From Saccostrea cucullata (taxonomy: Eukaryota): DNA of 64,000 nucleotides. The notes under the pieces were generated by a model. The model was not told the origin of the DNA. It ran no database searches and saw only the letters and a program-made list of their open reading frames with translations. Location: positions 1-64,000 of the forward strand of contig NW_026941528.1 of NCBI RefSeq assembly GCF_032062105.1. The letters are read 5' to 3'. Below are positions 31,431 through 57,397 of this stretch, piece by piece; position 1 is the stretch's first letter; every line of letters starts with the position of its first letter. A program made the position numbers and the translations under genes.

Positions 31431-31436
31431 TTTATT
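31431..31436 (-). promoter_or_regulatory. Candidate poly(A) signal of the LRR gene
   Basis: AATAAA on the minus strand about 50 nt after the stop codon. Confidence 0.4.
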
Positions 31437-31487
31437 TCCGATTTGTTCGCAAACAAAATGTGCATTCACAATTTATGAATTCTATTA

Positions 31488-31812
31488 CTAAATCATGGTA
31501 TTAACAAGCAAATACAAAGAAATCTGTATCATAACCAGAAAGTTCTTTACTTTTAACGGTGAAGAGTTGGTTTCATAGGTTGTTTTTATGAATTCCGTTG
31601 TCTCGCCCTCTGTTTCGGTGGTCGTTATAGGTATAGTGGTCATCTCGGAACAGGTCAAGTTTGCAGATGATAGGCTGACCAATTTGATTCCCTTTAATTT
31701 CTCAGGAGTGAAGCAGCGTATTCGTTCAGGAACACTGACAAATCCAGTTTTTATGTAATCGAGCATTCCAATCAACTTGCAATCGCAGTGATAAGGATTA
31801 TCATGCAATGTC
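31488..31812 (-). CDS. LRR gene last exon: LRRCT, Thr-rich stalk, GPI-like C-terminus
   Basis: TLHDNPYHCDCKL...RCFTPEKLKGIKL...LTC, then TTIPITTTETEGETT...NSS-PLKVKN-FLVMIQISLYLLVNTMI*. Confidence 0.9.
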
Positions 31813-34179
31813 CTGAATAAAGTAATGAGAACTTTATATAAAACCTAAAAACTTCACGTATATAATAATTTTGCTAAAATTATATAACTACGATATCATT
31901 TCACAAGTCTACAATCGAAATGTCTTAAACATGTACATAAGAACCTCATTACTTGTTCTGATACAGGGTAAGTCCTTAAATGTATCGCTTAATCTTACAA
32001 ATTATGTATTTTTTTATCTAGAGAACCGTCCATTTCCATTTGTCATCTTTACCCAACTGCAAAGTTGTAAACAACTGAAAATTTTACCTATACACGCAAT
32101 GGTACCATGTTTATTATTGGGTGCATTTTATGGTCCGATTTTTACGCAGTACAGTTAAGGCAACACATGAAAAAAATATGGTAATGAAGACATAATGAGG
32201 TCTGACGTCATGACAATTGCTCCGCCCTGATTGATCCATATAAGGAAATGGTGCTCAAAATAACTATTTACCGATATTTGCAAGAATTTGTAATAAACAG
32301 CAATATCGTGGCGGCATCAGCTGAGATTTGCAGTGGATTTAAATGCAATAACCACACAATCTTTAAAGAAAATAGGAATAAAATAAGAGACAAGGCATTG
32401 CTTCTCCCTTTTACGAGAATATGAGGACATTAAATAGCAGAAAACAGACGATTTGCACCAGATCCGTAGATCCATCACTGCACTGTAATTCGAGGCCAGG
32501 TATGTACATATGTAGGTACATGTTTAGATCTACAATATGTAGACATGCTTTTGTTAACATAAAAACCCGAGTGTGTTCATGTTCATTTAAATGTATTATC
32601 ACAGTCAGTGAAAAACTGAAAGGTAGTGCCTTGTGTGCAACCCCCCCCCCATACTAAGTTCAAGTTGCACACTTTTTAAAATTATTAAAAATTAATTGCA
32701 CTAAATATGTACTGAGTTCATGTCAATTAGCTCATTTTCTTTGAGACAATATGTGTAATAATGGAGGTCATCAGTAACACAAAAATGAGATGTTTTCATT
32801 GTGTCAGTTCACTAGTGACTAGGCCTAAACAAGCAATGATGTCTTTTGACATACAAATATGCTACACAATTAAAAAAAAATTATCAGTATCATTGTGTTG
32901 AAAACATATATAGAACCCCCACATCAGATCTATGGTTGTAATTTCCTAGATATTCTAAATTAATTTAAAAAATATTCATTTTTTGTTTATATTTACATGT
33001 ACATTAAAAATATTTATATAATACTTTTATCATTGTAGCTGTTGTCCAGAGTTTCAGTCTTAAAGAATGAACAAATAAAAAATGCATCATTTCTCCACAG
33101 GGTATGTATACTTCTAAAGCATTTAACATTTTTAAAGTTTGCATACATGTACTTTAGATTTTGGTTTTTTTTCAGTTTTGTAAAAGAGAAACTCAGAATT
33201 TTTTTAAGAAAATATTCTATCAATAACTATTGTAAATGTCAGAGGTTTCACTTTCCCAGAGAAGTTTTGTAACACATTTTTTTCCCCATTTATATGGTTA
33301 ACATAAATTCACTACAGTATACAATGTAGCATAATTTGTTTTGTCAAAGTAATGCCATTTTATTCTACAATGTATATTTAGTAATCTCATGGCATGTAAC
33401 TGCATATATATTGTGTTGTAGGCCTAGCCATTCCTAACCGTAGGACAAATGGATACATTCAGGCAGCAAGTTAATCTACCATTTAAGGAAAATGGTATGC
33501 TCAATATTAGCTATAAACCATGCAAAGTTTTGATAATAAAAATAACAGAAGAATTGAAAACATGTATATGCACCTTATTTTAATTGTTTCAATGCATTTG
33601 TTTATTTCATTTTTTTTAAACACAAATTACTTTCAATAATGGTATTTCCTGATTTTCTTATATTTTCAGAATTCATTTTATCCACAAGAACAAGAAGTGA
33701 TGGAAATAATTTGCACCTGCCCAGCATTCCTACAGTCTGTCATTGGATTTGAAAAGAAATGTTTATTAAATAAATTTTCTAGATAAATAATAATTTGACT
33801 TTTTCATATATTTACTGTACAGGTGTTGAAAAGGCCATTAAGATTTGAAAATCTTAACTTGCATACTATTTTGTGTGGAGGGTACTAATGTCCATCAAGA
33901 TCTTATTTCCAGCATGTGCATTTTGTTCATTTATTTTTCAATAATATGACCAAAAACAGGAGACTAGAGATCCCCCTATATTGATTCAAAATAGGATAGG
34001 GGACGACCATTTGATTCTGCGGGAAGGGGGGGGGGCAGGTGAGTTTTTCCAAGCATATTTTTTTTTTCATTTTCATGTCAATGAAGGAAAGATTAATATT
34101 TATTTTTGATCAATTATAGATAAAGGACAGATTATTTATTTTCCTCTTCATTGAAAAGTCTAACATGCAAAAAAATGTA

Positions 34180-34210
<31 letters not shown>

Positions 34211-37200
34211 CCACTGATTCGTGGGAGGGGAAGATCACTGATCTGCAAGTATTTATTTCTAAGATCTGCCAGCCCCTCACCCTCAATATAAAATGGCTAT
34301 CCCCTTAACAAATACAGGAGTATACCCCAATCCTTTTTGATTAGTTCCTAAAACTTATAACTTCGTTTATATCCCTTAATTAACAGTAAGCGGTCTGATT
34401 GAAAGTGATCGTAGATCTGAACATGATCTCGTATGCAGAAAGAAAAAAAAATATTAACACAAGTATGTGTACCATAGGCGTCGAAGCAAAAGTAAAGGGG
34501 GGCTAATTGAAGGGGGGGCTAAACCAAAAGAAAAAGGTAAATTCCAATGCCTACATTATGTATATAATTTGCAAATAACTTAATAAACTTGTTGGGAGGC
34601 TACCCCCCTCCCCCGGGTTCCGACGCCTTTGCGTACAGTAGTGAGAGAGGGGAATAGATATTTGATTAATTATTAATGGAGGCTATATTTTAATAAACCA
34701 TTTGTGTTCTAAATAAATATATCGGCAATATTTAGACCTATTCATGTATAGAGTGTACATGTATATACACATCTTTGAGGAAATGCGGGAGGTTTGAAAG
34801 AGTTAAATGTATACAACGTATGGAGAACGAATACACAGAAAAGAAAGAAATGTCAAGGATTTTATGCATACCGTTTTGCAATGATTTAGTAAAATAAAAA
34901 GGGTCCAGCCCTATCCGCATGTATATTTATTTAAAATTTACGAGGTAAACAAACTGTATCAAGTACTCAAGAGTTATCTCCCATGCTGGGTCAATGATGC
35001 GTTTGAAAACTATAATTAGATTGACTCTTCCAAGATTTCATTTTTAATCAAAAAGTGCAAGGGCAAGGCGACAATCTAAAAAGTAGGTGTTTATTTTAAA
35101 TTATTTATTTTATTGTAATGTTTTCAAAAAGTGATGCTCATTTCTTTGTAATCCTTTAGGTAATTTTATAATTCGCGATGAAATTAGGAAAATATCCTAT
35201 TTTTCATACATAACTGTCTGTTTTAGCTGAATAACTTAATTATATCGGAAAACTAACTGAATGAGCATCACTTTTGAGAAAGTATAGATACATAGAGACA
35301 ACATAAAACATTATGCAGTTAATTTTTTGTTTGCCTTGCCCTTGCACTTTTTGGTTAAATTTGACATCTCATTTTTTGACCTAAAATCGGAGCCCACGTG
35401 ACTTCAGGGGGTCACATGATGTCAAAAATACCAATGTGAAAAGCGATGGACATACTCTTAAAGATAACAAATAGATATTTGAACTAGAGTGACTTGCTCA
35501 AAAATAAAACTGTTAAACATTATATGTATCGGATTCCGTGAGTTTTTATAGAAAATGTTGCCTTAACTGTACTGCGTATACGCACTTAAAATAAAAATAG
35601 TCTGAAATACTTACATTAGTTGCAGATTTGTCAACCCACTTATTGTGATGTTTTTAAGGTAGTTATCCTAATCCCTAATAGATAAACCCACTTACTGTGA
35701 TGTTTCTATGCTATTAATCCTACTCTGAGATACTAACAATAGTTGTAAATTTGTCAACCCGCTTGTTGTGATGTTTATTGTAGTAATCCTGCTATGAGAT
35801 ACTTACAATACTGGTTGACTTATCAGCCCGCTTATTGTAGTGTTTGTAAAGGTAGTTATCCTGTTTCCATATAAGGCCCTGAGATAAAGTTAAAAAGATT
35901 GAAAGTAAATAACAGATCTAAGTTCAATCTATCTGATAGAATGACCGTAATACTAATTTTCATATACAATATACTTTCGTCCTAAGAAAGTGGAACAAGG
36001 CAATAAATACTTATACAAGAAAAAAAAATTCAAATTGTATTTAGTGAGAAATAATTTAGCCAGTATATTCTTGGATAAAAAAATTACGACTTATTACAAT
36101 TAAATTCATCTGTGGGCTGGTCTTTGATATATCTGTATACTACAGCATTTACAGTCTATATTTTCTTCTTAAGTTTTCTTTTTCTGATTATCTGTTCACT
36201 GTTTATACAATATACAACAAAGTATAAAAAAAATCTTCCCATTTACAAAATGTTTGTTAAAATTTACTTCCAGAGCGGAGGGACTTATTTTGATTGAAAC
36301 NNNNNNNNNNNNNNNNNNNNNNNNNNNNNNNNNNNNNNNNNNNNNNNNNNNNNNNNNNNNNNNNNNNNNNNNNNNNNNNNNNNNNNNNNNNNNNNNNNNN
36401 NNNNNNNNNNNNNNNNNNNNNNNNNNNNNNNNNNNNNNNNNNNNNNNNNNNNNNNNNNNNNNNNNNNNNNNNNNNNNNNNNNNNNNNNNNNNNNNNNNNN
36501 NNNNNNNNNNNNNNNNNNNNNNNNNNNNNNNNNNNNNNNNNNNNNNNNNNNNNNNNNNNNNNNNNNNNNNNNNNNNNNNNNNNGGACTCCAAAGTCCGAT
36601 GGACACGCCAAAGTCCGATGGTCTGCGCTAATCCCCGATGATCTGACACGCCAAAGTTCGATGGTGCGGAAAATAATTAACGTTTATGACGTCATAGTAC
36701 CACTGCACCAAACCTCAATGTCAAGCTTTAAAAAATAAGTATAAATAAATAAATGCGAAAACTAACCCTTATCTCTCAGATAGTTGCGAGTCTAATCCTA
36801 AACTCTCGAAAAGTGTGTATTAACAATAACCTAGATATCTTGGGTGGGTCACTACTGGACGAAAAAAGTGCTGAGAATCCCAAATTTTACTGATAATGTT
36901 TGATAATTACTGATACGGTGCTGTTCTTGCTGATAATTACTGATATTTACTGTTATTATTATTGTTGTTGCTGATAATTTTAGCTGTTGCTGATAAATAC
37001 TGATAATTACTGTCGTCTTTTACTGTGGAGTCTGATAAATGCTGATAAATACTGTTGAGGTACTGTCGCTGCTGAGAATTACTGATAATTACTGTTGAGG
37101 TACTGTCGATGCTGAGATTTACTGATAATTACTGTGGTCATTGTTTTTAACCTCTGAATGGATTAAAATAGCCTGAGAAATGATTATTTGGTTTTTTTTT

Positions 37201-40200: not shown

Positions 40201-43200
40201 TCAGTTCCTTTGATTTCCAATGTGAAAAATGTGATGTTTATATGTATAACATAAATATGTCCATTTGAATATGCATGGATTTTAGTTGAAAAACACATTC
40301 TAATATTATGTCAGGACCATTTATTGATGAATTTTCATTGAAAATATTGTCAGAGGTAATAACATATCAAAGTCGATAAGAATTTCCATCCGATATATTT
40401 AACATTTAAAAGAAATGAAAATGGAGTTAATATTTCAAAGTGTATTTCAAAAATAATAATCAATAAAGAAAAATATTATCGTGCGTGAAACTACTTAAAT
40501 TTAAATGGGAAATTACGGTTTTGAGGTTTGACATCCCGAGACTATTTTTAACAATGAACTTAAAATCCCTCTAATTTTGTCAAAAAAAAATAATTGAATC
40601 AAAACATGGGATATTGTACTTTGGAAAATTACTATTCCAAAGATGTTTTAAATAACGAACTTACAGAATTTTCAATTTTGTCAAATCACTGAAGGCATTT
40701 TCCTCTATTGTTGTAATGGTGTTGCCGCTAAGATCCCTGAAAGAAATTGTAAAAGAGACAATTTTTTTATCATCCTCAAATATGCGTAAGAGTTTTACTT
40801 TAATCGTTAAGAAAAAGCATCGATCACTTCAAAAATTATTACATGCCTCATAATGTAAAAACAGTTATATGAAATCTAAAAGTCATCCTCTTGGCGATTT
40901 ATAAAGCATATACTGTCCAAATTCAGGTTAAAGCAGTTTATTATACCTCTATTGATAATACTCGAATTTGATTGGTTGGTAAGACAACTTTAAAAACAAC
41001 AATGACTCCAAATGGTACTGTTTACAGCAATAATGACCTAGGAATCATTGCACGTGGGATATAATGACCCGGTCATGAATATTAATGACCGCTAAATAAT
41101 GACCTCTTAATCAAAAATTCCTTTTTGAGTGAAGTTCATGCATGAAATAATTACTATTCGAGAAAAACAACACGTTTTTAAAATTGTGCATGGTCTGGTT
41201 TGCTTTACCATACAGAATACGGTAAAATTTTATCTTTAACGGTTTACTCATTGCAAAATATCGTTACAATTCAGTTCAACGTAACAGCATTAAACAGGTA
41301 GAATCGGCTCTTTAAACAGTTGAATTCTGTGTTAAATTCTAACTGTGTAGAGGAAAAGTAATCGCTTGTTAAACAATTTATGTCGCTATCAATCAAATAT
41401 GGTTTTAATCAGTAAATCATGATGCAAAAACTTACATGACTTGTAGACGTCAATGGGTATAGCAAATCCCGATCCCGATCAAAGGAAGAATTGATATAAA
41501 TCTAACAGTTAGAGGTTCATACTTTTCAATATATATCGGTATAATAAAACAATTGATTACCCCTTATAAGTTCAACATGGTGAAATAAGGACCCTCGACC
41601 TGGCCCAATTGATCACCTGCCCTGACCTCGGCCACTTCGCGGCCTCAGTCAGGCCAGGTCACCTCGTGGGCCAGGTCTCGGGTCCTTATTTCACCATAAT
41701 GACATCAAAAAGAATAATTAATTGTATAATAATGTGGGTTGCTGTTAAATTCATTTTAAAGAAAAACACAAGTATAGAGATATTTAGGCCTCCTTACGCA
41801 TCATACTGTTCGAATTCCTTATTGAGGTTCGTGCCTACATTAAAAAAAACACTACAAAGAGGTTCCTCCTGTTCTTGACATCTTGACATTATCGAATCAA
41901 CATATAGATATTATACTTTGTTGGATTGAGATTCCAACAAAATAAAATAGAGTTAGGAACTGTTAAACTTAAGAGATCTCAAGTTAGCTTGTCAGACCAG
42001 TAAATGTGTTTTCCATAATTGCAATTAATTTGTTCATGTAATTTTTAAAAAAGAAAAACATGTGAAGAGATTATGTCAGAAGCAAGGTTTTTATATATAA
42101 CAAAATTTATCATTCAATAAACAGGGAAGTGTTTATTATTACGTGAATAATTCCTACTAGCTTCAAAATTTCAATTCATTGAATTCAGACGGTAAACACT
42201 GGGCTGGTACTTCTCACTCTATCAATTAATAACAATTTAACCTCTTTTTAAAAGAAAGTTATAATTAATAATGATATACATGTAATAATCATCTAAATTG
42301 TAAATTATATTTCTGGTCTTACAAGCAATGATAGCGCAAATATTTCTAACAAGCCTCAAAATCTCAACACAGGTATGGAGATAATTTACAATTATCCACT
42401 TTATGGAAGTGGGATATCTCTTTTATCAAATCTGTGACAGTGACTATTCTTGTCAAGGTTTTGGTAAAAGAGCCATCCCACTATCAACCAATTGATCAAT
42501 GTTTTATGTTTCATTATATTGATGTATAAAATAATTTCTAAGGTTTGATTTTTTGGTGTAAGAAAATACTGTGAAAATAAGATGAAATCCTGATCCTGAA
42601 GTCATTATGATATCATTGGTCTATAGATTTATTGATTAAAATCAAAATTGGCGGCACAAATTATAAGAAAATTTTTCGAAAGGTTGGGTAGCAAAAATAT
42701 ACCCGGGCTAAAGCTTTCTATTCCTGGACATTTTCAGATTATAAAAAAAAATAGTTAATTACCTGCAAAACTATATAAAGGAATCACTTTAACAGAAGTA
42801 AAATAACGAACAGTTTTCAATATCAAAGTACATTAAAAAATACAAAATAGGAGCAGGGCAAACACGAGCTACGAAACATTAGAGGTCGGATCAGGTGCCA
42901 TGGAGGACTGAGCATCCCCTGCTGACCGATCACACCCACCGTGCGCTGATGGTCATGATCGGGAAATAACGAAAAATCCGTCATAATTTAGTGTGTAAAT
43001 AATGGCCTAACCATTAGTATGAAGACGTCGGTCAGCATTTAACTCAGTTTTATTTCCTGACTAGGACGTAGAACTAACGAAAAGATGACTTTATACGGGA
43101 CTTTTGATGTTCTTGCTTTATCAACTAGTTTATTAATAATTTTACCCCGTTCTAGAAACTGCACATCAAAAGAGCTTGCTTGTTGCGTTAACTGACAGAA

Positions 43201-45984
43201 AAACCCGGTATATAGGTGATGAAGATGTTAATAATAAAAATTGGTTGTTACATTATCATATCAAACTTTAACATGATCAGCCTCCACTTAATTATCAGTC
43301 AATCTGAATCATGTAACTTACATTAACCTCATTAAAGCTTTGATCCTGAATAAGGTTTAATGTATATACTTGTCTTAAATTTTAGAATAAATCAAGTGAA
43401 TTACACGCATCATAGTGCTCATTATTCAGTTTTTGTTTAACGTTAATCTAAAAAGAACAAATCTAAAAATCGATATTTTATTCTTGGCAGTGTTGAATCA
43501 AACTATAGTATGCTATACTTTAGTGGATTGATACTCCAAAAATATATAAATGGTTAATGACTACTCCAAAATATATAAATGATAAGAGATTCTTAGAAAA
43601 AGCTTACAAGTCAGTTAACTTTGTCAAACCAGTAAATATGCTGCTCTTGATTGTAGTCATTCTGTTCTGGTTCAAATATCTGAAAAGAAGTACAAAGTAA
43701 AAATCGAAAGCAGGTGATTCCTAAAAAAAAGAAAGGTTCCTTTTTTTCTTGGAGAAATTATCACGTAAATAACTCCATCTAGATCCACACAGCCAATACA
43801 TGGTTTTACACGTGATTTGAACTGGGTTTGGGAAGTTTTTGTTTTGCAGTTTACGAGGGCTTGTCAATTAACAGTGTCCTCGATGCTTGGAAAGAAGCAA
43901 AACAAAAAAGAAAAAACTCTCCAATGATAAAGTATCATTGATTTAACTTAATATTTTCTTTTATTTAAAAAACATTTCGATACATTTTTCATTCAATTTC
44001 TGATCGTTTTTTTCTTCAACATGTACTATGTAAATGGTGTTTTTTTCGTGTTTGGAAAATGAAAAAAATAAAAGGCGAAAAATCTGGCAAATATTGTTAA
44101 TGTGAAAAAAATACTTTCTGTTTATAACAAAAAATCCTTTACTCTTCAGGGCGTCCGGCTTTGGACGCTGTCATCAAGAAATTTAATGTAGCAAATTACT
44201 GATTCTGGTCCCTTCCTCTCATTAACCTTTCGATTTTTGCAAAAACAATTGCTTTCTATAATCTTCCAGAAATAAAATTTCCTCCTGAACACGAATTTGA
44301 ACAACAAAACCACTAATATTAAAGAAAGTTGCATATAAAATTGTCTTTGTGCTCCTGCAATTCTTTGCGCTTCTCAGACCATTGCTGTTTTTGTCAAGTA
44401 CATCTTATTGTAATTTTTTTACCGAGGTTTTTAAGCAAAAGATTCAAGTTTTATTATGTGTTTGAATTTCAATCAAACATGGATAACTACAATTACTTAT
44501 ATTTAAAAATAATTGTTTAGATATTCTCACACATTGTCGTTTTTACTCATATCTCAAAACAAACGGTGACCATTGAGTACTAAGCTTTTTTACTGTTAAA
44601 CATTTCTTTAAAACAGTGTGAACTACTCCTCAAATGATGTATATCAAATAAACTGTGTGTCTTAAAGTCAATCATCAGTGATTATTCGTTGAAATAACTT
44701 TATTTGGTAGTAACCAATATTTGCCCCCAAATCAAACTTTGAAATATTTTCATTATGTTTTTAAACAGGGGGATATATGCTGACTTCAAAGCACTGAATA
44801 TTGTTATAAGCAATGACGTTATATATTTGAAATGACGTCATATGACGTAAAATAAAAATTTCCTTGATTTCTGCAGAAAAATGTATATGTTACGTCGATA
44901 TTTTGAGTAAAAGTCATCGAGCACAGGTCTGATCAGGATCGATATTTTGATATCATGTGTAGAATGATAATATCAATCCTGAACAAACTTGCGCTCTACA
45001 AATTTTAAAGCAAAAATTGTTGAAATTTTGTCCATTTTTTCCTCTTTCTGAAAAATGATATAAAATCGGACTAGTTTTCGACGTTATCAATAAACTACTT
45101 TGAAACTTTGATATGTTCTGTTATTGATATTGATATTCACCTGCCCATTTGTCTATGAAACAAACAATGGTTCCCGTAAATTTCCTCACATTTCAGTGAA
45201 TATTTCTTTGAGACTTAACGAGTTTTACAACAGCTTAAATGAAGCGTTTAATTTCACTCTAGTTTACTTATTCTAAACCATTCATTTTTAATTCAGTGTC
45301 TCGAATAGCCTTTGTTTTGCAGCTTCTCACAATGAAACTATCTGATGAGAAGTGGTCACATAAATTATTATTAACTTATTTTAGATTCAATTATGCGAAA
45401 AGGTCAAGCTTAATGTTATATAAAATCTGTATTGTATGACACACAGTTCAGGACATTATTTATTGAACAACCCTCATATAGTTTGTACAATTGATATCCT
45501 AAAAACACACAAGGAAATTAAAAGTTTCTATTAATTTGTCTACTTATTGAAATAATAGAAAACAACAAGAGATATTATAGTTTGGAGGGAATCATATTCC
45601 AAGATATATATCTAAAAAAACAAACTTACAGTCTTTCTAAGTTCGTCAATGCACTCATTGCATTGTCCTCTATTGTGGTTATTCTGTTTTGATGAAGTAC
45701 CCTGAAAAAAATGTGCAAAGGGAATATCAAGTGCAATTATTTATCACCTTAATATTATAAAAATTTTACATTTTCCTTATATATATATATATATATATAT
45801 TCATGGTTGATTAGCTTTTACTAGCGAATATAGTGCAAAGTAACCAAAATGCACATGTGACCAATTTTCATAATTTTTTTGCCACATAGTCAAAAAAATT
45901 CCCATATTATGTTCTCATGCGTTTTTTTCCTTTCAGTAAATTTATATATATATATATGTTCTCATGCGTTTTTTTTCCTTTCTG

Positions 45985-46022
<38 letters not shown>

Positions 46023-49000
46023 ATTTACATCCTTAAATTAATTTATGTAAAACATCTGACACGGCAGACCCATGCTAGCAATTAAGTTTCTTAATCGCAA
46101 AATTTCTTATCCGTTAGATTAAAGCAATTCTCGAAGATCTTTCTGTAAATTGGTATGATTTATATTCTCGGCCGTCGGATGCTAAGATATGCGCGCGGGT
46201 TCTCACGCCTTTCACCATTCCCTCACAGAACCTTGTCAGTGAACGCGCAAACAAAAATTCTGCTGTAATTTTAATTGTTGATCTCTTCATATCTATTCAA
46301 TTGGGATAGAAAGGTATGGATTTTAATTTTTGATGTTTATTTTCCTCGGCATGTTGGATCCCTATGTTCTTAAATTTTTTAATGTGGAACAGAACTAGCT
46401 TTTTTGGTGAAAGCATATATCTCAAAACAATGGTATCTATTCTGATTGCGGGATCTTCTCATGTAAATAGATTACAATCGTATATCCGAGAACATTGTGA
46501 ATATGCTAACTTCAATTTATCCGCAACGGCGATTAATTATTTTGGAATAAGTGGTGGGAAATTATCATGTTCCGCTCATATAAATATGTTAGAAAGGAAA
46601 ATCGCTGATCTACGTCCAGGTGTACTCATTTTACATATAGGAGGAAATGATGTTGACAATGTAACAGCAGATGAATCGTTTGTGAGGGAATTAAGCCTGC
46701 GCCTTTTATGCATCGCAGAAACTTTCACATCACGCTACAATATTGCACATGTGAAAATTTGTCAGCTAATGCCTCGTTTTAGGACTCGACTTTTAGACAC
46801 AACATCGTATAATGAACTTGTGATCAAATTCAACAGAGAATTGAAATGTCTGCTGGTACAGAAAACGAGTGTGCAATATTGGAAGCTTAAAAATATTAAA
46901 CACTCTAAATTTCCGATATTTTGTGATGGCGTTCACTTTAACGAAGAACAGGGGATGATAATATACTATAGGAATCTACGTGGGGCAATATTGCACTCCT
47001 TGAAGGCTATCCAAAAGTGATGGCATGTTACCTTCACCATATTCATGTTATGAGATAAGTTTCATTTTAATTTTAATTTTTGTAGTAATTATGCATTCAA
47101 GATACATGTACTTGAATTTTGAATATCGATGTCATACCAAACAATATTATGGTGTATAGAGTGTAGAACATTTTACGATAGCTGCTAGTCATTTGATGCA
47201 CATGGCATCGTTTTAGTGATCTGTCACTATATATGCACTGTGATATGTCACAGTAGAAACGGCTTCTGCTCATTTTGATGCACATGGCATCTTGATGTTT
47301 GCGATATGTCGCTATGAGCTGTAATATGTACAGCTGAGCAGTTGCTTTTATGTTATGGCTAGCAGCTTATATGTGTGAAGTGTCGCTACACTCTGATGTA
47401 TGGTACACCTGAGAAAGGGGGTTACACAAAGTCATTCTGTTTCAACTTTAACAACTCCGAGCAGGGAATTAGCAACAGAAAGGAATGTAAATTTTCCCAT
47501 TCTTGTCAGCTCTGCGAGGGAGAGCACAGTAGAAAGGTCTGTCCCACGTCCCTCAAATCAAGCGCAAATGCTAAAGGAAGACATAGAGTTAGCAGTAATC
47601 ATGGTCCGACAGAATTTACAAAGTCCACATCCAAATCATCAAAATAAAAATTTTGAAATTGTTACCCCAGTTAACCCTGATAGGTTACATGTATGGCTAT
47701 TAAATTACGATATACCTGATAGGGAGTTTCTGGTCTTAGGTTTTAGAGAAGGATTTAAAATACCTTTTCAGGGTAAAAGACAATGCAGACTTAGCGACAA
47801 TTTAAAATCCGCTAAGCAACATTTAGACATTCTTCAAGAAAAAATAAACAAAGAATTAGCCTCTGGTCGAGCTGCTGGTCCGTTTCAAGAACCACCATTT
47901 ACTAACTTTCAAAGTTCGCCCTTAGGCTTAGTGCCCAAAAAGCAACCTGGCGAATTCCGGGTTATCCATCATTTGTCATACCCAGAAGGTCAGTCAATTA
48001 ATGACGGAATATCTCAAGAATTCTGTTCCATCAAGTATCAGACAATTGACGACGCGGTTAAAATTCTTAAAAAGTATGGCAAGGGGGCTTTATTTTCGAA
48101 GACTGATATTGAGAATGCATTTAAAATCATTCCTGTTCATCCTTCAGATCACGAATTACTAGGCTTCACGATAGGAAGTTATTATTTTTTTTTTTATAAA
48201 ACTTTACCCATGGGTCTTAGTTATTCCTGTAATCTCTTTGAGAAATTTAGCTCATCACTTCACTGGGTTATGGACTATCATTACAATGCTTCCTGTGTAC
48301 ATGTTTTAGATGATTTTCTTTTCATTGGTCCAGCCAACACAAATCAGTGTTTAAATTCGCTGGAAAACTTTTTGAACCTGTGCAAAGATATAGGAGTTCC
48401 CATTAAATCTGAGAAAACAGTATATCCCACAACAACAATTACATTTTTAGGTTTAGAATTTGATTCAGAAAAAATGGAATTAAGATTGCCAGATTACAAG
48501 CTTCTCAAATTGCAAGAAACACTAAATAGTTTCAAAAGGAAGAAAAAAGCTTAACTACGCGACTTACAGTCTCTTATTGGCTTGTTAAACTTTGCATGTT
48601 CTGTTGTATTACCTGGCCGCACATTTCTCAGACGACTGATAGATCTCACCAAAGGTTTAAGATTACCGCACTTTAAGAAGTACTTGAATAAGGAAGCTAG
48701 GGCTGACCTTGAGGCCTGGTCAATTTTCATTAACCATTTTAATGGCAGATCCTTAATTTTAGAAGATAAATGGATTACTTCTGGAATATTATCCCTCTAT
48801 ACAGATGCAAGTGACCTTGGTTTTGGGGGTACTTTTCAAATGAACTGGTTTTGTGGGAAATGACCTGAAAAGTGGCGCCAGCTACACATTACAGTCAGGG
48901 AACTATTGCCTATTATACTGGCCTTAGATTTGTGGGGCCCCGACCTGCAAAATTCCTGTGTTAATTTTTATTCTGATAACATAGCTGTAGTGTACATTAT

Positions 49001-52000
49001 TAACAAACAAACTTCTACTGATCCAACTATTATGAAATTAATGCGGCGTTTTGTCGTCAAGACAATGCAGTTTAACATTTTATTTAAGGCAAGTCATGTC
49101 CCTGGTGTACTTAACGTTGCTGCAGATAAACTTTCTCGCTTACAGGTACAAGAATTCAAGGAGGGGTTCCCATCTATGAATCCAATGCCGACACCAATAT
49201 CTCCAACAATGCTCAACCTTTAAAGAACGTAGCAGACTTCATTTTGCAGAGTTCACTTGCTAAAGCTTCTAGGTCATCATACGATAGAGCTTTTACATGT
49301 TATAAGTCCTTCATGTTCAACCAATATCCAAACGTCCCCATCTTACCACCATCATCTCAACATGTCGCACTTTTTGTAGCCTTTTGTTTTCAATCCAACA
49401 TGGCGACGTCGACCTTGAAAAGTTATCTATCAGCTCTAGGATATATATTTAAATTAAAGGGCTATCAAGACGTAACACAGCTTTTTGTAATTCGCAAAAT
49501 GCTACAAGGGTATGAAAAGTTAAAACCAGGTACCAGGGATACGAGGCTGCCTATAACACCGTCTATTCTAAGAAATTTAGTTGACTCGCTTGATCATTTA
49601 GGTATCTCATTTTACCAGCGCAGCATGCTAAAATCAATGTATTTGTTGGCCTTCCATGCCTTCTTAAGAGTGGGGGAAATAACTATCACATCTCGACATC
49701 ACAGAGGTAATGTTTTGCTACTGGAAAATGTTGAGCTTGTTCGAGACGAATCAAACACACTAGAAGGCCTAGAAATAAGACCTGCTTCTTTCAAGCACAG
49801 TTCTGGCCGACATATTCCCACCTTGTTTCTACAGGCTAGTAATTCCGATGAAGGGCTCTGTCCAGTGCAAGCACTATTGTCATTTATTACACTAAGGGGT
49901 CAAGTCATGGGTCCCCTTTTTTCTTACCCTGATGGTCATGGAATCCAAAGGCAACAATTTACAAACTTTCTACAAATGTCTTTAAAGTGGTCGGGTCTCG
50001 ACTCTAAACTCTATAAAACTCATAGTTTTCGAATTGGTGCGGCAACGTCAGCAGCCGAAATGGGTATTTCAGATTAAAAGATTAAACAGATGGGACGATG
50101 GCATTCCGACGCATACAAGAAATACATACGCATACCTGTTTTGAAAATCTAAATATTTTCTGCAGTAAGTATAATCATGGGGACAGGGGCCTCTGATTAT
50201 GCACTAAATATCAACACATACTACGATCAGCTGGTTTTTGGACATAGCGAATATAAGTTTCCAGATTTATATTTAATTTCCCTTTATAGCATGGACTGTT
50301 TTGAATTTTAAACCTAGGTCATGGGGACATGGGCCTCTGACTTAACCTTATAAATATAGCATGGAATGTTTTGATTTTCAAACTTGAGTCATGGGGACAG
50401 GGTCCTCTGACTTAACCTTACAAATAAAGGATGGACTGTTTTGATTTTTCGAACTTACACGTAAGTCATGGGGACAAGGGCCTCTGACTTAACCTAATGG
50501 AGGTACAACTGCGTTCATTTTTCTTCGACATTAAGTCACGGGGACATGGGCCTCTGACTTATTCGCCTGGTTGTGTTTATATAATGTATAATTTGTTTTT
50601 TTATTCCGGTTGGCTGTAATAGTGATGTTAGAAACTTTGATGAAATATGACAGAGGATCGTGAACTTAATTATAACGTATTATGGACACTGCTGGTTAAT
50701 GGAGCTTGAACTAGATCCTTCTATCACTTATAAAGGAGTATCTTGACCATCTTTGAAGAAACTATGTGGTATTTATGTTTGTGCATTAATATTAACAATT
50801 CATTAGAAGACAATAGTTTAAGGATGGGGTTTATTGCGTTTATGTAAACACAATAATGTGGCGAATTTTTATACCCCACCTTTGATATCTATTGAAACAA
50901 AATTGATTATATTTTCAATTGTTCAATTTTTCTGATTCTGCATTATATGTTTATATGCATGATATTTTGTGTTTTTTCATACAGTCATTTATAATGTATA
51001 TAAATGACATTTTTCAATTCACTTAATCTTAATTTTGTTTCTTCATATCAAACAGAGTTAAACTATTGTCAGTGGGTTTACATAAATATTTAATTTACAT
51101 CCTTAAATTAATTTATGTAAAACATCTGACACGGCAGACCCATGCTAGCAATTAAGTTTCTTAATCGCAAAATTTCTTATCCGTTAGATTAAAGCAATTC
51201 TCGAAGATCTTTCTGTAAATTGGTATGATTTATATTCTCGGCCGTCGGATGCTAAGATATGCGCGCGGGTTCTCACGCCTTTCACCATTCCCTCACAGAA
51301 CCTTGTCAGTGAACGCGCAAACAAAAATTCTGCTGTAATTTTAATTGCCCTCCGTCCCGCCCCAACACCATCTGTAATTATTGCCGTGTCAGCATAGTTA
51401 TCTTTGATTGGTTTTGTATGATACATATTCTTTTAGAATAGTTTTTTATGTTTATGTTTTAATTTGCTAAAAATATGTACGATTGTGGTGTTTGCGAATT
51501 TTTATACCCCACCTTTGATATCTATTGAAACAAAATTGATTATATTTTCAATTGTTCAATTTTTCTGATTCTGCATTATATGTTTATATGCATGATATTT
51601 TGTGTTTTTTCATACAGTCATTTATAATGTAAAAAAATGGCATTTTTCAATTCACTTAATCTTAATTTTGTTTCTTCATATCAAACAGAGTTAAACTATT
51701 GTCACTGGGTTTACATAAATATATATATATATATATATATATATCACCTAAATACTTCTTACTTTCCTTTAAATGTCAACACAGGTATATCAAATTTAAA
51801 CATGTTCAACCTTAACTTAAGAGGGCCGTTCAGAAATTACGCGGACTAGTTGCACAGAAAAAAATATTTGACAATATAAACGGGCAAAATGTCACACATA
51901 ATATAAAAGAATTTTTCCTTATATGGTCTTCAAACTTTAATATTAAAATGTTGTAAATTGTTATCAATTTTGAGTGATTTTTTCAGGGCATATCAGTAAG

Positions 52001-53806
52001 TCACGGAGCAGCAAAATCTTCGATGCCACAGGCATTGTAAAAAAAATGTGATTGAGCTTTTATTTTCTCAACATTTTTCCAGGAATACCTATACAGTTCG
52101 AGTTATTTTATCTACTCAACATCCAAACACCATTTCTTGTCAAGCTTAAAATCTGTTAAACAAATAAAGAATATTCTTTTTTTTTTTTTGTTTAGAAACC
52201 AAAAACTATAGGTACATGTATATATGAGATATAGTGTGACATTGGTCACTCTTGATCACGTTCTTTGAAGTCCGGATAAAGTTTTCGTCGATAATCCTCT
52301 CGTATAGCCTTTCTACAGAGGTCTAACGGTCTTAAATTTCAATTTGCTATTTGTGGATGAATGTCACAAATACCCTTTTTTACTACATTTTTATTATGCA
52401 TATTGTGAATTAATGTCGGCGATATCTCAAGCATTACATATAATTTAACAAAAGTGTGGTGCGCCGTCAATTCAGGATACGTCAATTTCACCGTTGTTTT
52501 TACGGGAATCGCATCAGAGAAAAGTCACTATTTCTGTTAGTATTTCAAATATCACGTCAGAAATCTAAATAATCTAAATAATTAAAAAAAAAAGTACAAT
52601 TTAAAGATACTAGAACATTTGAGAAAATTGTCGAAAAATTCGCAAATTAGAGAAAATTAATGAGTAAAATTTTGGATTTCGCATGTTTTTGCTTCAATTT
52701 TTTTTTGTCGTGCTCCGTACCAACATATCAACGTACGTACCAAGGGTATCAACATACCGATAATTTTAGTAATTTTTTTCTAAAATACAGAAATTTTGCC
52801 CAAAAGTTATTGGAATCTTTAAGATACTTCTATCTGTGTAATTTCATAACTTTATGACGTCTGTAAGAATAAATAATAGTCCGCGTAATTTTCGAACGGC
52901 CCTCATATTTATTTGTCTATCACAATTACGCATCGACTGGTAGGGGAAGCCGAGTAGTAAAGTTTTTTGCGGGGGTCTTTCTTAACTGCGAAGCGTTAAT
53001 GAAGAAGGTTTTGCATACTTTAGTTTTGAGGATTGATACCAAAATAATATTTCAAATAAGGAGTTTTCAGTCTTTTTAATTTGTCAAATCATTTAATGAA
53101 TCAACACAGAGTATTTAATATATTTTTGAGGGTTTATATTCCAAAAATTGTCCTCTTTTGTGGTTATTCTGTTTTGATTTAGATACCTTATAGAAATTGT
53201 GAAGAAGGATTTCTAAGTGTAAGTATTTCTCTCTCTAAAAGTTCATAAGAATTTATTAGAATTATTTAAGATTATAATAATCATAAAATGTATCCATCAT
53301 GTTATATTAAGTTTTAAGATGATGAGCAGTTGATGAATTTTTTATGTCTCTCCATGTCCCCTTTTCAAAATATTTTTGATACCTATTTCGTTGAGATTCT
53401 TAAGGAGTTTCACAGCAGCTTTATTGAAGCGTTTAAGTTCACTCTAGTTTCTAGTTTACTTATTCTTTACAATTTCCTTTTAACTCAGTGTCTCGAATAG
53501 CCCTTGTTTTGCAGCTTCACTCATTATAGATTCAATAATGTAAAAAGGGTAATAAAAATTTCTATAAATTTGTCAAATTATTGAAATAATATGAACAAAA
53601 AGATATATTATAGGTTGAGGGAGTGATATTCCAAGATATATATTTAGAAAACAAACTTACAAATATTTTAAGTTCGTCAATCCACTGAACATGTAATCTT
53701 CTATGGTTGTTATTCTGTTTCCGATTAGATACCTGAAAAAAAAGTGCAAAGGGAATGTAAAGTGCAATTATTTATCACAATAAAATTAAAATTTTACATT
53801 TTTCTG

Positions 53807-53896
<90 letters not shown>

Positions 53897-56800
53897 CGAC
53901 GTAAATATTTCTTACTAACCTTAAAATGCCAACACAGGTATATCAGATTTAAACATGTTCAACCCTTAGCTTATTCATTTGTCAATCTAAATTGATCATC
54001 GACTGGTAAGGGTAGTCGAGCATTAAAGTTTTGCAAGAGTCTTTCTAAGCCGCGAAGGTTAATGAAGAATAAATGTTTGGCATGCTTTTGTTTTGAGGAT
54101 TGATATCCAAAAAAACATTTTAAATAAAGAATTTTCAGTCTCTTTAATTTGAGAAATCATTTAATCAATCAAACAGAGTATTGAATAAATTTTTGAGGGT
54201 TTATATTGCAAAAATATATCTTCAAAAAACAAACTTACAGTTCTGTTAATTTTGTCAATGCACTGATTGAGTTTTCCTCTATTGTGGTAATTCTGTTCTG
54301 ACTTAGAAACCTAAAAGAAATTGCGAAGAGGAATTATCAAATGCAAGTATTTCTCTCTCTAAAAGTTGATAAGAATTTAATAGAATTATCTAAGATTATA
54401 ATAGTCATATAATGTATTCATCATGGTATGTTTAGTTTTATTAAAGATGAGTAGTTGATGAACTGTTGATGAATCTACGTGTCCCTATTTCACGAATTTG
54501 TATCTGCCTTAAGTCGTATAGTATTACAAATACAGCTTTAACTTTATCCCGAGTTAAGTGGAAATTTTGTTCTGATCAATGTCCTAAAATTACTATTATT
54601 TTTAAGTCGATTGAATTCCTAGCAATATAATTAATAAAATAAAAGAAGATGTCATAAATAATCTTAAAGCATCTATGCTCAATATGAAACATGGATATAC
54701 TTAAGGAGGTATTATACATTTTTTGATAAAACAAAATATAATACTATCTAAAAATTAAAACACAAGTGTAAAGACCTTTAGGCTTAATTCCGGGTGTAGC
54801 CTGAATTTATACATCCCTCAATATCAATACCGAATCCCATATTAAATTATTCTTTTAAATCCTCATCGTTCAATGTATATACTTGAGGAAACTTAAAGTT
54901 CACTAAACCCCTTATATAATAACATGAACAAGGTCGAAAATTTTATTATCTTTCAACTCATTATGTATACACATATTTTGTATTATATATAATACTTATA
55001 CTTTTCTTTTATTTTTACTGATATCATTGCTATAAGTTCTTTCAACTTACACAAATATTGCTTTTAAAAAAAATTAGCAAAGCAAAATTTATAACATTAA
55101 CAATTTAGTAATGACGATATGTAAAAATAAATATTTTTTTTAATATCGATATAAATATATGAAAATTTCTAATAAATATCGGTATTGAATTAACTTTGCG
55201 GAGATAGGAATTGGAATGATTTTTCACTATACTCGGGATTCAGTAGATGCTCCTCTACCATGTATTTTCTATTGTATACGATTAAAGGCTGAAAAAGGAT
55301 TGAGAAACATGAGCAGATGAAATACCGGTATATTGAGATAACGAACAGTATCCAAGCACATTAGGCAATAAATGTATGCTTTTATAGTTTATGCTTGGTA
55401 CAATTACGTATAAAAAAATAGTCCACATGTGTTGAGACCTTGACGCTTCTGTGGTTACATGCATGAGTCCAGTGTTATTCTTATTGGAACAACATTAATG
55501 TGAAAAAAAAAACAGAACATTATTTTTTATATCGCCCGAACGAAGTCGCGGACGACATATTGTACATGGACGCATGTTTCGGTTCTCCATGCTGTTTCTC
55601 GAAGATGGTTGAAACTTTCACCAAAGGACAATCACTGGTTGTAGTTGTGTTGTGTTGTGTGGTCATTCAGTTTCAAAAAGGATACCGTTGTCATAAAAAC
55701 TTGTCAAAAGCGACGAATTTTGGACGTTCGTCATGAAACTTTATTTATTTAATTAATAGTATCTGTAATTGTGCTCATTGCATTTCAAAAATTCAAGTTG
55801 TCAATAGGTGCTATGGAAACAGGGGGGAAAGTGAAAATTCTTTAACTTTGATTTTTAAATCAAAGTACCGAAAGGACTGGTGCGAGTTAATAGTTGCAAC
55901 CTTAGCAAATAGATATTGTTTTAGTGATGAAAAATGAACGTCTTGTCCAGTTCGGGGCGATAAACGCTATTGCTTGTAATAACAGACTTGCTAGTTGTTC
56001 TTGATATTGTTAATTAAAACAAAATTAGAATATTTTTTGATGGATTGCTATACTCCAAATATATTCATAATCAGGAACTCGTAGAAATAAAACTTACAAT
56101 ATCGTTACGCTCGTCAAGCCAGTAAAACTGCTGTTCCTAATTGTAGTAAAATTGTTCTTGGACAAAATCCTAAAAATTAAAATATTGAATAGTTAATGTC
56201 AAAAGCAATTTTTATGCAAAATAGGTGTTTCTCCATTATTTACGAAAATACAAATATGAGACAAGTATCACATGAATGATTGCTTTTTAGTTGTACAATA
56301 TGGAAAGATGATCGAGTTCACATGGAATAAAGTGAGCTGGAACAATTAACGCCATATATACTGCAAAAACGTTAACAAAGAATAAATACATGTTTTATTG
56401 TTTGGACTGTTGATATCCCCAGGAATATCTTAATAACAAACTTACAGTCCCTCAAATTCTGTGCAATCGAATCCATAAATTGGATTTGAACGTTTGTAGG
56501 TCTATTATTTAAAAAATATTTTTTAAATAGTTATCAATATTTAATTATAACTAGTAATTACTAATGGTAAAATTGATTTTCTTATTAATTCCAACAATAT
56601 ACTATGAAATGTACGAATTTACGAATTTAAAGGTTAATAAAAAGAATGAAGAAATTTGTCCCTGATATTTAAGTATTTGTCCCTGATATTTAAGTATTTC
56701 TGAGTCCTGTTTATTTCTTTAAAGATAAACTCAAAATCATTTTAATTTTTTTTAGGAAGTCTATCATTGTTTTAGAATTCATACTCTAAAATGCCAAAAA

Positions 56801-57397
56801 ATAAATCATATTAGCAGACGAGTAGGGAATTATTTAAAAGTAATAGTTCATCGTATTTTCTTAACGATATTAAAGATAAACGATATAAAATAAAAAATGT
56901 TTTGGAAGACAAACAAAAGATCTACAAATTTTTGTAAAGTTTCATATATTGATTTCTCAGAATCCCAGTCAGGTTGAAAAGAACTAAAACATTTTTTATC
57001 AATGGATTAAATACAATATATCAATAATTTAGAAGAAAAACATGTTTTTTTTTATTATATCTTAAATTTTACATGCAAGGTTGTTTCAAAATAAAAGCTT
57101 ATATTTTCGAAACCAAAATCTTACTTAATTAATAAAAAAGTTAATTACGGATGTAATTCTGCATTAGCCTCTTTTATGATTTACATCAAATTAGAGATAT
57201 TCTTTCTACCTGATTACTTACAATTTACAAGTGTCGTTGGGTAGGGTAGAAGGTACCTCTGTTAGTTCTTTACGTGCGCAGTTAGCTTGTTGGCCAGAGC
57301 ACCCAATCGCCTGTTGACAGGTGCAAGGGCTACAGGCATCAATCATTGTTTTAGATAACATAGCACAGAAAATGAAAAACCACAGTGTCGAATTCAT
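31488..57397 (-). CDS. Secreted/GPI-type LRR protein gene (SP-LRRNT-7xLRR-LRRCT-Thr stalk-hydrophobic tail; VLR-like domain order), ~334 aa
   Basis: Exons 57397-57222, 56169-56098, 54310-54239, 53732-53661, 45701-45630, 43679-43608, 40736-40665, 35878-35807, 31812-31488 are all GT-AG and phase 2; they sum to 1005 nt open. More exons could lie in the two N gaps. Confidence 0.85.
33999..34304. mobile_element. Nested small TIR element
   Basis: GGGGACGACCATTT ... AAATGGCTATCCCC. Confidence 0.45.
34473..34631. mobile_element. Nested hAT-like MITE
   Basis: CATAGGCGTCG ... CGACGCCTTTG with G/C-run subterminal tracts. Confidence 0.5.
35615..35806 (-). repeat. Three tandem partial copies of the adjacent LRR exon, two retaining donor-like sites
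   Basis: Units start AGGAT(A/T)A(C/A)TA; two of the three end ...GG(G)TTGACAAAT...GT(A/T)AGTAT. Confidence 0.75.
35807..35878 (-). CDS. LRR exon (72 bp)
   Basis: ALYGNRITTFTNTTISGLISQPVL; cag/gtaagt. Confidence 0.7.
36301..36583. other. Assembly gap
   Basis: Run of N. Confidence 1.
36584..37140. repeat. Short tandem motifs (CCAAAGTCCGATG; CTGATAATTA), probably TE subterminal repeats
   Basis: 3-4 copies of the first motif and about 10 of the second, next to the gap. Confidence 0.55.
39652..39803. other. Assembly gap
   Basis: Run of N. Confidence 1.
40665..40736 (-). CDS. LRR exon (72 bp)
   Basis: DLSGNTITTIEENAFSDLTKLKIL; cag/gtaagt. Confidence 0.9.
40941..41730. mobile_element. Fold-back element with terminal palindrome (Crypton-like non-autonomous?)
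   Basis: Palindrome ~41543-41730 (ATGGTGAAATAAGGACC...GGCC-ACTTCGC-GGCC...GGTCCTTATTTCACCAT); GATTGG motif at the other end. Confidence 0.55.
41972..42045 (-). pseudogene. Dead LRR exon
   Basis: YMNKLIAIMENTFTGLTS* with in-frame stop and no intact splice sites. Confidence 0.65.
42800..43160 (-). mobile_element. Penelope-like 3' fragment
   Basis: Reverse complement has GGTCAGCAGGGGATGCTCAGTCCTCCATGGCACCTGATCC and the RT end. Confidence 0.75.
43608..43679 (-). CDS. LRR exon (72 bp)
   Basis: YLNQNRMTTIKSSIFTGLTKLTDL; cag/gtaagc. Confidence 0.9.
45630..45701 (-). CDS. LRR exon (72 bp)
   Basis: VLHQNRITTIEDNAMSALTNLERL; cag/gtaagt. Confidence 0.9.
46016..46277 (+). repeat. Split direct repeat A1
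   Basis: Identical by eye to 51086-51347. Confidence 0.95.
46430..47020 (+). CDS. SGNH/GDSL-type hydrolase carried by the retrotransposon (intact; frame open from 46364)
   Basis: Blocks ILIAGSSHV (catalytic Ser), GISGG, ILHIGGNDV, DGVHFN. Confidence 0.88.
   Translation: MVSILIAGSSHVNRLQSYIREHCEYANFNLSATAINYFGISGGKLSCSAHINMLERKIADLRPGVLILHIGGNDVDNVTADESFVRELSLRLLCIAETFTSRYNIAHVKICQLMPRFRTRLLDTTSYNELVIKFNRELKCLLVQKTSVQYWKLKNIKHSKFPIFCDGVHFNEEQGMIIYYRNLRGAILHSLKAIQK
47095..47335 (+). other. Cluster of short hairpins with shared AYATG loop
   Basis: GATGC-ACATG-GCATC x2, TAGTG-ATCTGT-CACTA, ACTGTG-ATATGT-CACAGT, GCG-ATATGT-CGC, AGCTGTA-ATATG-TACAGCT, ATTCAAG-ATACATGTA-CTTGAAT. Confidence 0.7.
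47375..47647 (+). pseudogene. gag: Gag C-terminal Cys/His zinc-finger remnant (most of gag missing)
   Basis: CFNFN...CKFSHSCQLCEGEHSRKVC pattern typical of DIRS-group Gag ends; overlaps the pol start in another frame. Confidence 0.7.
47400..49223 (+). pseudogene. pol: Reverse transcriptase - RNase H (pol), one frame with two premature stops (48552-54, 48861-63)
   Basis: SPLGLVPKK, FRVIHHLS, KTDIENAF, LPMGL, HVLDDF, ITFLGL; RNase H LYTDAS, ITVRELLPI, SDN, HVPGVLNVAADKLSR. Confidence 0.92.
49244..50152 (+). pseudogene. Tyrosine recombinase (phage integrase family), one premature stop at 50075-77
   Basis: AFHAFLRVGE, SFKHS, LCPV, THSFRIGAAT; past the stop, KIKQMGRWHSDAYKKYIR supplies the catalytic W and Y. 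Confidence 0.92.
50171..50561 (+). repeat. Array of five 30-nt hairpin repeats separated by 40-114-nt spacers (retrotransposon 3' UTR)
   Basis: Copies start at 50171, 50315, 50385, 50462, 50532; consensus TAAGTCA-Y-GGGG-ACANGGG-CCTC-TGACTTA. Confidence 0.9.
50861..51089 (+). repeat. Split direct repeat B1
   Basis: Matches 51494-51722 with about 4 substitutions; abuts A2. Confidence 0.95.
51086..51347 (+). repeat. Split direct repeat A2
   Basis: Copy of A1. Confidence 0.95.
51494..51722 (+). repeat. Split direct repeat B2 (element right end)
   Basis: Copy of B1 running into (AT)n. Confidence 0.95.
51820..52905. mobile_element. Non-autonomous Tc1/mariner-type transposon
   Basis: 28-bp TIR GAGGGCCGTTC..AAATTACGCGGACTA; TA duplication confirmed by the empty site in the paralogous intron (~53965-53983). 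Confidence 0.88.
53147..53186 (-). pseudogene. Half-deleted LRR exon
   Basis: YLNQNRITTKEDN, then a deletion removes the 3' half and donor relative to paralog 54310-54239. Confidence 0.8.
53661..53732 (-). CDS. LRR exon (72 bp)
   Basis: YLIGNRITTIEDYMFSGLTNLKYL; cag/gtaagt. Confidence 0.9.
53810..53895. repeat. Compound (CT)n(AT)n microsatellite
   Basis: Direct observation. Confidence 0.98.
54239..54310 (-). CDS. LRR exon (72 bp)
   Basis: FLSQNRITTIEENSISALTKLTEL; tag/gtaagt. Confidence 0.9.
55523..55996 (+). mobile_element. Helentron-associated non-autonomous element (HINE/DINE-1-like)
   Basis: T-run start, subterminal inverted repeats ATCGCCCGAAC / GTTCGGGGCGAT, 3' end CTAGTT. Confidence 0.6.
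56098..56169 (-). CDS. LRR exon (72 bp)
   Basis: ILSKNNFTTIRNSSFTGLTSVTIL; tag/gtaagt. Confidence 0.88.
57222..57397 (-). CDS. LRR gene first coding exon: signal peptide + LRRNT
   Basis: MNSTLWFFIFCAMLSKTMIDA-CSPCTCQQAIGCSGQQANCARKELTEVPSTLPNDTCKL; gtaagt donor, phase 2. Confidence 0.9.

Follow-up and report, generated by a model that had tools for sequence, protein, structure and literature searches.

A probable family of germline-encoded, fast-evolving surface leucine-rich repeat receptors in the oyster Saccostrea cucullata

The window analysed here is a stretch of 64,000 nucleotides of Saccostrea cucullata DNA (NCBI RefSeq assembly GCF_032062105.1, contig NW_026941528.1, positions 1 to 64,000). 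On its minus strand, from 57397 to 31488, lies a gene of nine coding exons that encodes a leucine-rich repeat (LRR) protein and in which seven of the repeats are each carried by an exon of their own, referred to below as a cassette. Joining of the exons by script gave a coding sequence of 1005 bp with an open frame of 334 amino acids (aa). The gene belongs to a family of paralogues whose cassettes show positive selection at the codons of the concave face.

Gene structure and genomic relatives

A first-pass annotation had described the product as a signal peptide and LRRNT followed by seven repeats on 72-bp phase-2 exons, an LRRCT, a Thr-rich stalk, an N-S-S motif and a hydrophobic C-terminus. 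We recovered all of these parts (Table 1), and each of the seven quoted surface motifs was found, in cassette order ILSKN, FLSQN, YLIGN, VLHQN, YLNQN, DLSGN and ALYGN. All seven LRR exons are exactly 72 bp long and phase-2 symmetric, with a pyrimidine tract and AG acceptor on one side and a GTAAG donor on the other. A nucleotide profile made from six cassettes detected the seventh at E 9e-10, whereas nothing better than E 2.4 was found outside the gene in the window; the cassette array is thus not due to chance. The N-terminus is hydrophobic (Kyte-Doolittle peak 2.28, 11-residue window), and so is the C-terminus up to the stop codon (peak 1.99, 17-residue window), with N-S-S placed 25 residues before the end. 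Pfam searches with protein P0001 and the terminal exons returned LRR-class domains only, the LRRNT match of exon 1 (E 0.01) being short of the cut-off. In RefSeq the same gene is represented by XP_062596551.1, a 189-aa Saccostrea cucullata protein that extends from cassette 4 to the end and has no signal peptide, LRRNT or cassettes 1-3; its name, 'slit homolog 2 protein-like', was assigned automatically.

Genome searches with the LRRNT exon gave 82 matches, 26 of them at E<=2.2e-14, and those with the LRRCT exon gave 83, including 30 at E<=1e-14 (haplotype duplicates are counted in both cases). We estimate the number of close loci at roughly twenty. Altogether 28 close loci were retrieved whole or in part, and the 13 that are complete from LRRNT to LRRCT hold 7, 5, 5, 5, 5, 3, 7, 5, 7, 9, 4, 10 and 19 intact cassettes. 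The 72-bp phase-2 exon is kept in 127 of the 134 intact cassettes that were counted for this feature in retrieved loci. In the paralogue with 19 intact cassettes (C17552:5277-29872) the last exon is apparently frameshifted after the first LRRCT residues. The whole 133-kb contig carries four cassette-bearing genes, most of their cassettes being bordered by AG/GT, and none was found at window positions 1-31000; the three further members lie past the window (C23665:77976-85651, 107957-115363 and 128789-131245). One of these three is encoded on the opposite strand, next to an inverted cassette; in another, a stop interrupts the exon-1 match and the first cassette has AT as its donor. The nearest paralogue is colinear with our gene in cassette order. 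The order is therefore mostly inherited and altered by local duplication or loss, and the initial picture of freely interchangeable cassettes is not supported.

Shared-word protein searches found close matches only in S. cucullata and distant ones also in S. echinata; the queries did not include the full spliced protein, so that relatives of the N-terminal half could escape, and searches of this type cannot establish that the family is absent from other oysters. No conserved one-to-one orthologue was seen in the protein searches. Giant LRR proteins dominated a profile search against 1.84 billion representative sequences; P0001 and P0002 were the only family members among the best 150, and the search is uninformative on range. 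Further subfamilies, made up of some 50 LRRNT and LRRCT exons of greater divergence (contigs C599, C677, C2440, C9154, C22404, C22956 and others), share the 72-bp cassettes, but their LRRCT exon has no tail of the glycosylphosphatidylinositol (GPI) type. Membrane or signalling exons downstream of these subfamilies were not seen by eye among the 311 frames listed, for which no Pfam scan was made. At C7660:43533-78820 the RefSeq model of a distant relative (P0177) joins LRR cassettes to a Cys-rich domain; a stand-alone protein near-identical to that domain (P0175) has a chitin-binding CBM_14 match at E 7e-4, short of the cut-off. P0177 is either a model fusion or an LRR and chitin-binding protein reminiscent of the amphioxus VCBPs. 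We found no paper on this oyster family in the openly accessible literature, supplements aside.

Selection on the concave face and the C-terminal signal

For the analysis of selection, site classes were fixed from LRR geometry before counting and comprised six concave or adjoining, seven core and ten convex positions. The pair test used 42 disjoint pairs formed by intron-flank likeness among 115 unique cassettes, 31 of which were left unpaired, and three duplicate contigs were excluded. The ratio of nonsynonymous to synonymous substitution (dN/dS) was 1.81 at concave positions (95% bootstrap interval 1.41-2.36), 0.22 in the core and 0.47 at convex positions. Concave values were 2.02 for the 20 close pairs and 2.42 for the 24 between-contig pairs, and the six pairs that include a cassette of our gene gave 1.68 (1.27-2.26), with 0.25 in the core. 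The concave class showed no rise in synonymous change, so these values are not accounted for by block replacement. A codon model of 146 unique cassettes yielded 2.26 for the concave class (likelihood-ratio p 1.2e-9 vs. 1), 0.25 for the core and 0.62 for the convex class; its tree comes from short sequences and recombination is outside the model, and the pair test and the codon model concur.

In both structure models the beta strand falls on the last, split and first residues of each exon, which are the positions so classed. The mean predicted local distance difference test (pLDDT) score was 48.8 for P0001 and 72.1 for a distant full-length relative; the P0001 model is poor and its fold matches carry little weight. 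The check proposed at the outset, dN/dS on concave residues combined with structure models, thus gave a concave ratio above 1 and core and convex ratios below 1. The variability of surface positions, to which attention had first been drawn, is also present, as the motifs differ between cassettes, but taken alone it is ordinary for LRR proteins; only the dN/dS between paralogues makes the case.

A motif of small residues 26-30 aa before the end, with a spacer and a hydrophobic stretch behind it, is found in 26/31 last exons of the family, and 19/31 pass a stricter rule-based GPI-like criterion. The five last exons without the motif are three from distant-subfamily members and two that are themselves apparently frameshifted or cut. 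Stalk length ranges from 0 to 287 aa among the paralogues, and the Cys spacing of the LRRCT varies by no more than 3 aa in 30 of the 31 last exons. Conservation of the anchor motif behind a freely evolving stalk suggests that the predicted GPI signal is functional. For our gene the prediction was made by rule from an N-terminal signal, small residues about 20-30 aa from the end, a spacer, a terminal hydrophobic run and the lack of a cytoplasmic tail.

With a probability of about 0.7, we propose that the gene belongs to a germline-encoded, fast-evolving family of surface LRR receptors, likely GPI-anchored and probably immune, with a foreign, fast-changing and most likely microbial ligand. The original suggestion of a diversifying recognition receptor is borne out to the extent that concave codons are positively selected, paralogues differ between 3 and 19 cassettes, the GPI-type tail is conserved family-wide and the protein searches gave no one-to-one orthologue. 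It is very improbable that we are dealing with an ordinary conserved adhesion or guidance protein of the Slit, Nogo-receptor or connectin type, whose repeats differ simply as LRRs do. The database names ('slit homolog-like') point that way, as do the Nogo receptor and Slit2 domains that were the top fold matches of the relative's model, and the accessible text of PMC6642158 describes modular LRR exons in Slit genes too. Yet dozens of young paralogues, a variable cassette number and dN/dS above 2 largely refute this view, and close protein matches were confined to Saccostrea in the shared-word searches.

The same family under the same selection could instead recognise its own kind, in gamete recognition, allorecognition or cell-identity coding. 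Positive selection would fit any arms race, and expression over the 5′ part was low in both oligo-dT runs for which raw reads were used. Oyster sperm bindin, for one, owes its diversity to splicing and recombination. We consider an own-kind target unlikely: other LRR-only proteins of bivalves and amphioxus bind microbes, as described in the accessible parts of PMC5877582 and PMC4731796. Moreover, a second, haplotype-like contig (C10483), which is 99% identical, shows a single substitution relative to our gene in exons 1-7, from N to S at a concave site of cassette 5; this is little for allorecognition but comes from a single pair and hence a small sample. An apparent break of cassette 7 in C10483 was rejected as a haplotype difference, as it lies in the last 1.2 kb of that contig among dense gap columns.

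Transcripts, cassette rearrangements and other features of the window

Five of 24 RNA sequencing runs were aligned, the 3′ end being assessed in four runs and positions 40000-57600 in four. The last exon was covered in three of the four, from three studies, with 0-1 mismatched letters, and read depth dropped to 0 past its acceptor, into the intron, in 4/4 runs. One contig from run X8 continues past 31812, and 29 of its 30 extra letters match cassette 7, as expected for the predicted junction. The 3′ end of the gene is spliced.

Skipped-cassette isoforms are present among the computed RefSeq models of three distant relatives. Five isoforms on contig C7660 (31% identity in the LRRCT exon) lack cassette 4, 1, 3+4 or 1+2, always as exact 72-bp exons; an S. 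echinata relative has two models that are one cassette apart; and isoform X5 on contig C22956 uses five of eight cassette exons. RefSeq alternative isoforms are generally based on RNA junctions. These models raise the odds of skipping in our gene and do not show it. Of the two sources of variation originally suggested, copy number does differ between paralogues, and skipping is so far a feature of distant relatives' models. A crude complementarity test for docking sites of the Dscam type placed two of the seven cassettes above 95% of shuffles, with runs of at most 13 bases in AT-rich DNA and no pattern.

A more far-reaching and speculative possibility is that oysters have independently evolved an anticipatory repertoire like that of the variable lymphocyte receptors (VLRs), but one that needs no somatic DNA rearrangement. 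Cassette skipping in dozens of LRR genes, GPI-anchored and secreted, with up to 19 positively selected cassettes each, would then produce many binding surfaces, possibly differing per haemocyte, and germline conversion would refresh the cassettes.

Using the cassette profile we found four broken cassettes inside the gene, which had escaped the first-pass annotation (Table 1); broken cassettes are also present in 9/13 complete loci. A 3′ cassette part with its donor has grown into a short tandem array here and in several paralogues (C7784:26132-26480, C13601:36681-37123, C23665:84206), and such arrays may give rise to new cassettes or to dead ones. A unit of cassettes 2 and 3 has been tandemly duplicated, the second copy of cassette 2 being the stub at 53186 and the second copy of cassette 3 being cassette 4. 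In its flanks, cassette 4 resembles cassette 3 more closely than cassette 3 resembles the corresponding cassette of the adjacent paralogue. In a post hoc test, however, the informative sites of the cassette 4 exon were cassette-2-like at 14 and cassette-3-like at 5, vs. 11 and 56 in its flanks (p 5e-6), and two control cassettes were cassette-3-like throughout. On the simplest reading, cassette 4 has likely undergone germline gene conversion from a cassette-2 type. The event is common to both haplotype-like contigs and so is inherited.

Intron 4 is 7959 bp long and hosts a 5.7-kb retrotransposon, likewise absent from the first-pass annotation. Its split direct repeats lie at 46009-46277 (A1), 50861-51092 (B1), 51079-51347 (A2) and 51494-51725 (B2), and this A1-B1-A2-B2 order is given as the defining trait of Ngaro-type retrotransposons in the accessible text of PMC9210276. 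That text places the SGNH-like frame of Ngaro elements after the recombinase, whereas here it precedes the reverse transcriptase (Pfam E 6e-15), which is accompanied by RNase H-like and recombinase-like frames. The frame order recurs in a copy on contig C17552, which has about 1.1 kb of additional sequence at 47414. The element is young, sharing 99% identity with at least five further copies. The frame at 49130-50077, which we take to carry the recombinase motif, had no Pfam match.

Elsewhere in the window, exons at 16494-18159 (-), possibly together with 14776-15069 (-), gave weak PAN (E 6e-4) and C-type lectin (E 0.0015 and 0.079) matches and end in a membrane-like last exon; the 16494-18159 (-) locus is a candidate lectin receptor adjoining the LRR cluster. 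The frame at 2262-2672 (+) has a weak C1q-domain match (E 0.02), and those at 1490-1837 (+) and 26079-26339 (+) resemble what are presumably decayed reverse-transcriptase fragments.

Table 1. Coding exons, broken cassettes and inserted element of the LRR gene (window positions)
Feature	Positions	Strand	Description
Exon 1	57222..57397	-	176 bp; start codon, hydrophobic signal-peptide-like segment, four-Cys LRRNT; phase-2 donor
LRR cassette 1	56098..56169	-	72 bp, phase 2-2
LRR cassette 2	54239..54310	-	72 bp, phase 2-2
LRR cassette 3	53661..53732	-	72 bp, phase 2-2
Broken cassette	53148..53186	-	copy of cassette-2 unit; acceptor and 39 exon bases kept, 3′ half and donor lost
Ngaro-type retrotransposon, intron 4	46009..51725	+	5.7 kb; split direct repeats; outside the protein
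LRR cassette 4	45630..45701	-	72 bp, phase 2-2; flanks cassette-3 type, exon cassette-2 type
LRR cassette 5	43608..43679	-	72 bp, phase 2-2; holds N to S difference vs. contig C10483
Broken cassette	41976..42047 (approx.)	-	acceptor missing, in-frame stop
LRR cassette 6	40665..40736	-	72 bp, phase 2-2
LRR cassette 7	35807..35878	-	72 bp, phase 2-2; joined to last exon in one RNA run
Decayed head-to-tail copies, two to three	35615..35806	-	from 3′ part of cassette 7 with donor; broken cassettes at 35738-35806 and 35615-35685
Last exon	31488..31812	-	325 bp; final short repeat, four-Cys LRRCT, Thr/Glu-rich stalk, N-S-S, spacer, hydrophobic tail, stop
3′ untranslated region	31128..31487	-	minimum extent; run X8 contigs 31394-31812 and 31128-31296

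Weighing of the receptor reading and comparison with known systems

Several observations weigh against an immune surface receptor encoded at this locus. The junction between cassette 7 and the last exon comes from a single contig with 30 letters on its short side, one below the threshold of the tool. Mean depth in the bins of exon 1 and cassettes 2-3 was 0-0.04 in 4/4 runs (repeats dominate 40000-57600); no full-length transcript was found, neither a joint spanning intron 4 nor any exon-exon joint was among the 15 of 44 joints listed, and the RefSeq model starts inside cassette 4. Cassette skipping in our gene was not seen in the aligned runs. A difference in cassette number between haplotypes is not supported either, since C10483, the only other contig of haplotype type, carries an unchanged set of cassettes. 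Broken parts in many paralogues, together with the atypical sequence at the end of cassette 7, indicate that some members are decaying. Besides the post hoc nature of the cassette 4 test, a family-wide scan in which 78 of 148 cassettes were testable gave no conversion event significant after correction, so that conversion is not shown to be common. The GPI assignment follows a rule of our own, built on general criteria, and not a trained predictor. Finally, positive selection cannot separate immunity from gamete or self recognition.

The thin 5′ coverage also bears on the question of whether this copy is decaying, cut by the young element in intron 4, with transcription limited to a 3′ piece that lacks the signal peptide. 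Such decay would agree with the 99% identity of the element to its other copies, with a RefSeq model that starts downstream of it, with the nearly uncovered 5′ exons and with the four broken cassettes. Against this, the reading frame is open through all nine exons, whose splice sites are intact, exons 1-5 are identical on C10483, and core codons are conserved in the pairs with cassettes of this gene (0.25). The element is on the opposite strand, and a rare mRNA with 3′ bias accounts for the thin coverage. We regard decay as quite unlikely.

We thus retain the surface receptor as the preferred reading, for which the following mode of action can be proposed. The predicted signal peptide would route the protein to the surface, where the hydrophobic tail is predicted to have been exchanged for a lipid anchor near N-S-S. 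The Thr-rich stalk would raise the curved solenoid and, judging from LRR structures, residues of the concave strands would bind the ligand. Having no cytoplasmic part, the protein may act through a signalling partner or, once shed, as an opsonin. Germline diversity arises by the processes seen among the paralogues: genes are duplicated, frame-neutral cassettes are gained and lost, and point substitutions accumulate on the concave face. Occasional cassette-to-cassette conversion, as in the one case described, may add to it, and so may skipping of cassettes in the mRNA, which is indicated by the database models of relatives.

VLRB of jawless vertebrates, whose domain order had been recognised here at the first pass, is a GPI-anchored protein. 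According to the accessible text of PMC3308329, it has the same signal peptide, LRRNT, variable number of 24-aa LRRs, LRRCT and Thr-rich stalk, and the same concentration of variation on the concave face. In that text, however, the VLR germline gene is incomplete with its only intron in the 5′ untranslated region, the one locus is flanked by hundreds of donor cassettes without splice sites, VLRA and VLRB have a highly variable LRRCT insert, and the stalk is invariant. The oyster gene, in contrast, is complete over nine coding exons and each cassette has its own splice sites; it is part of a multigene family with no donor library on the 133-kb contig, its LRRCT has no such insert and its stalk is variable. 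It is not a VLR: the likeness lies in layout and in the place of variation, and four of the VLR features tested are absent. Somatic assembly from donor cassettes at a true VLR-type locus is accordingly an extremely improbable explanation of the shared domain order. Broken cassettes could act as donors, one event resembles conversion, and VLRC was among the look-alikes (rank 12 by features in the ESM Atlas, otherwise made up of generic extracellular LRR clusters, and rank 42 by fold), but the germline gene is complete and the conversion, common to both haplotype-like contigs, is inherited.

The exon design itself has precedents in the ROCO genes of brown algae and in Slit and NLR genes. Brown-algal LRR-ROCO genes, in the accessible text of PMC11378527, have the same 72-bp phase-2 LRR exons and positive selection on the concave face, as well as splice variants with differing sets of LRRs, which among the oysters were found only in RefSeq models of distant relatives. 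The ROCOs of that source are LRR-ROC-COR GTPases, whereas the oyster protein is an extracellular, LRR-only animal protein with caps and a GPI-type tail. Modular LRR exons with splice variants are likewise described for Slit and NLR genes in the part of PMC6642158 available. The LRR domains of Slit and the Nogo receptor are of the same fold class (Slit2 domain, template modelling score 0.92 by target, with the relative's model). These are conserved developmental genes, and Slit has four LRR domains with EGF and laminin-G domains; the oyster family is lineage-expanded and positively selected, and our gene has one LRR domain and stops after the hydrophobic tail.

Also comparable are the scallop proteins CfLRRop-1 to -6, bivalve LRR-only proteins which bind microbial patterns and respond in haemocytes (accessible text of PMC5877582, which describes neither their exon structure nor an anchor or selection) and which we liken to the oyster family by description, not by sequence. 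The VLR-like Bf66946 of amphioxus is a germline-encoded invertebrate LRRNT-LRR-LRRCT protein that binds bacteria on its concave face; the accessible text of PMC4731796 describes no cassette-exon family or selection, we saw no sign of orthology, and its structure (PDB 4xsq) was fold rank 3 on a low-confidence model. For the study of how long-lived filter feeders, which lack antibodies, recognise changing microbes, this family offers named genes, named selected codons and countable splice variants. It is a plausible germline stepping stone toward a VLR-type design, and with it a mollusc would join the lineages (lampreys, brown algae, NLR genes) in which variable LRR binding surfaces evolved separately.

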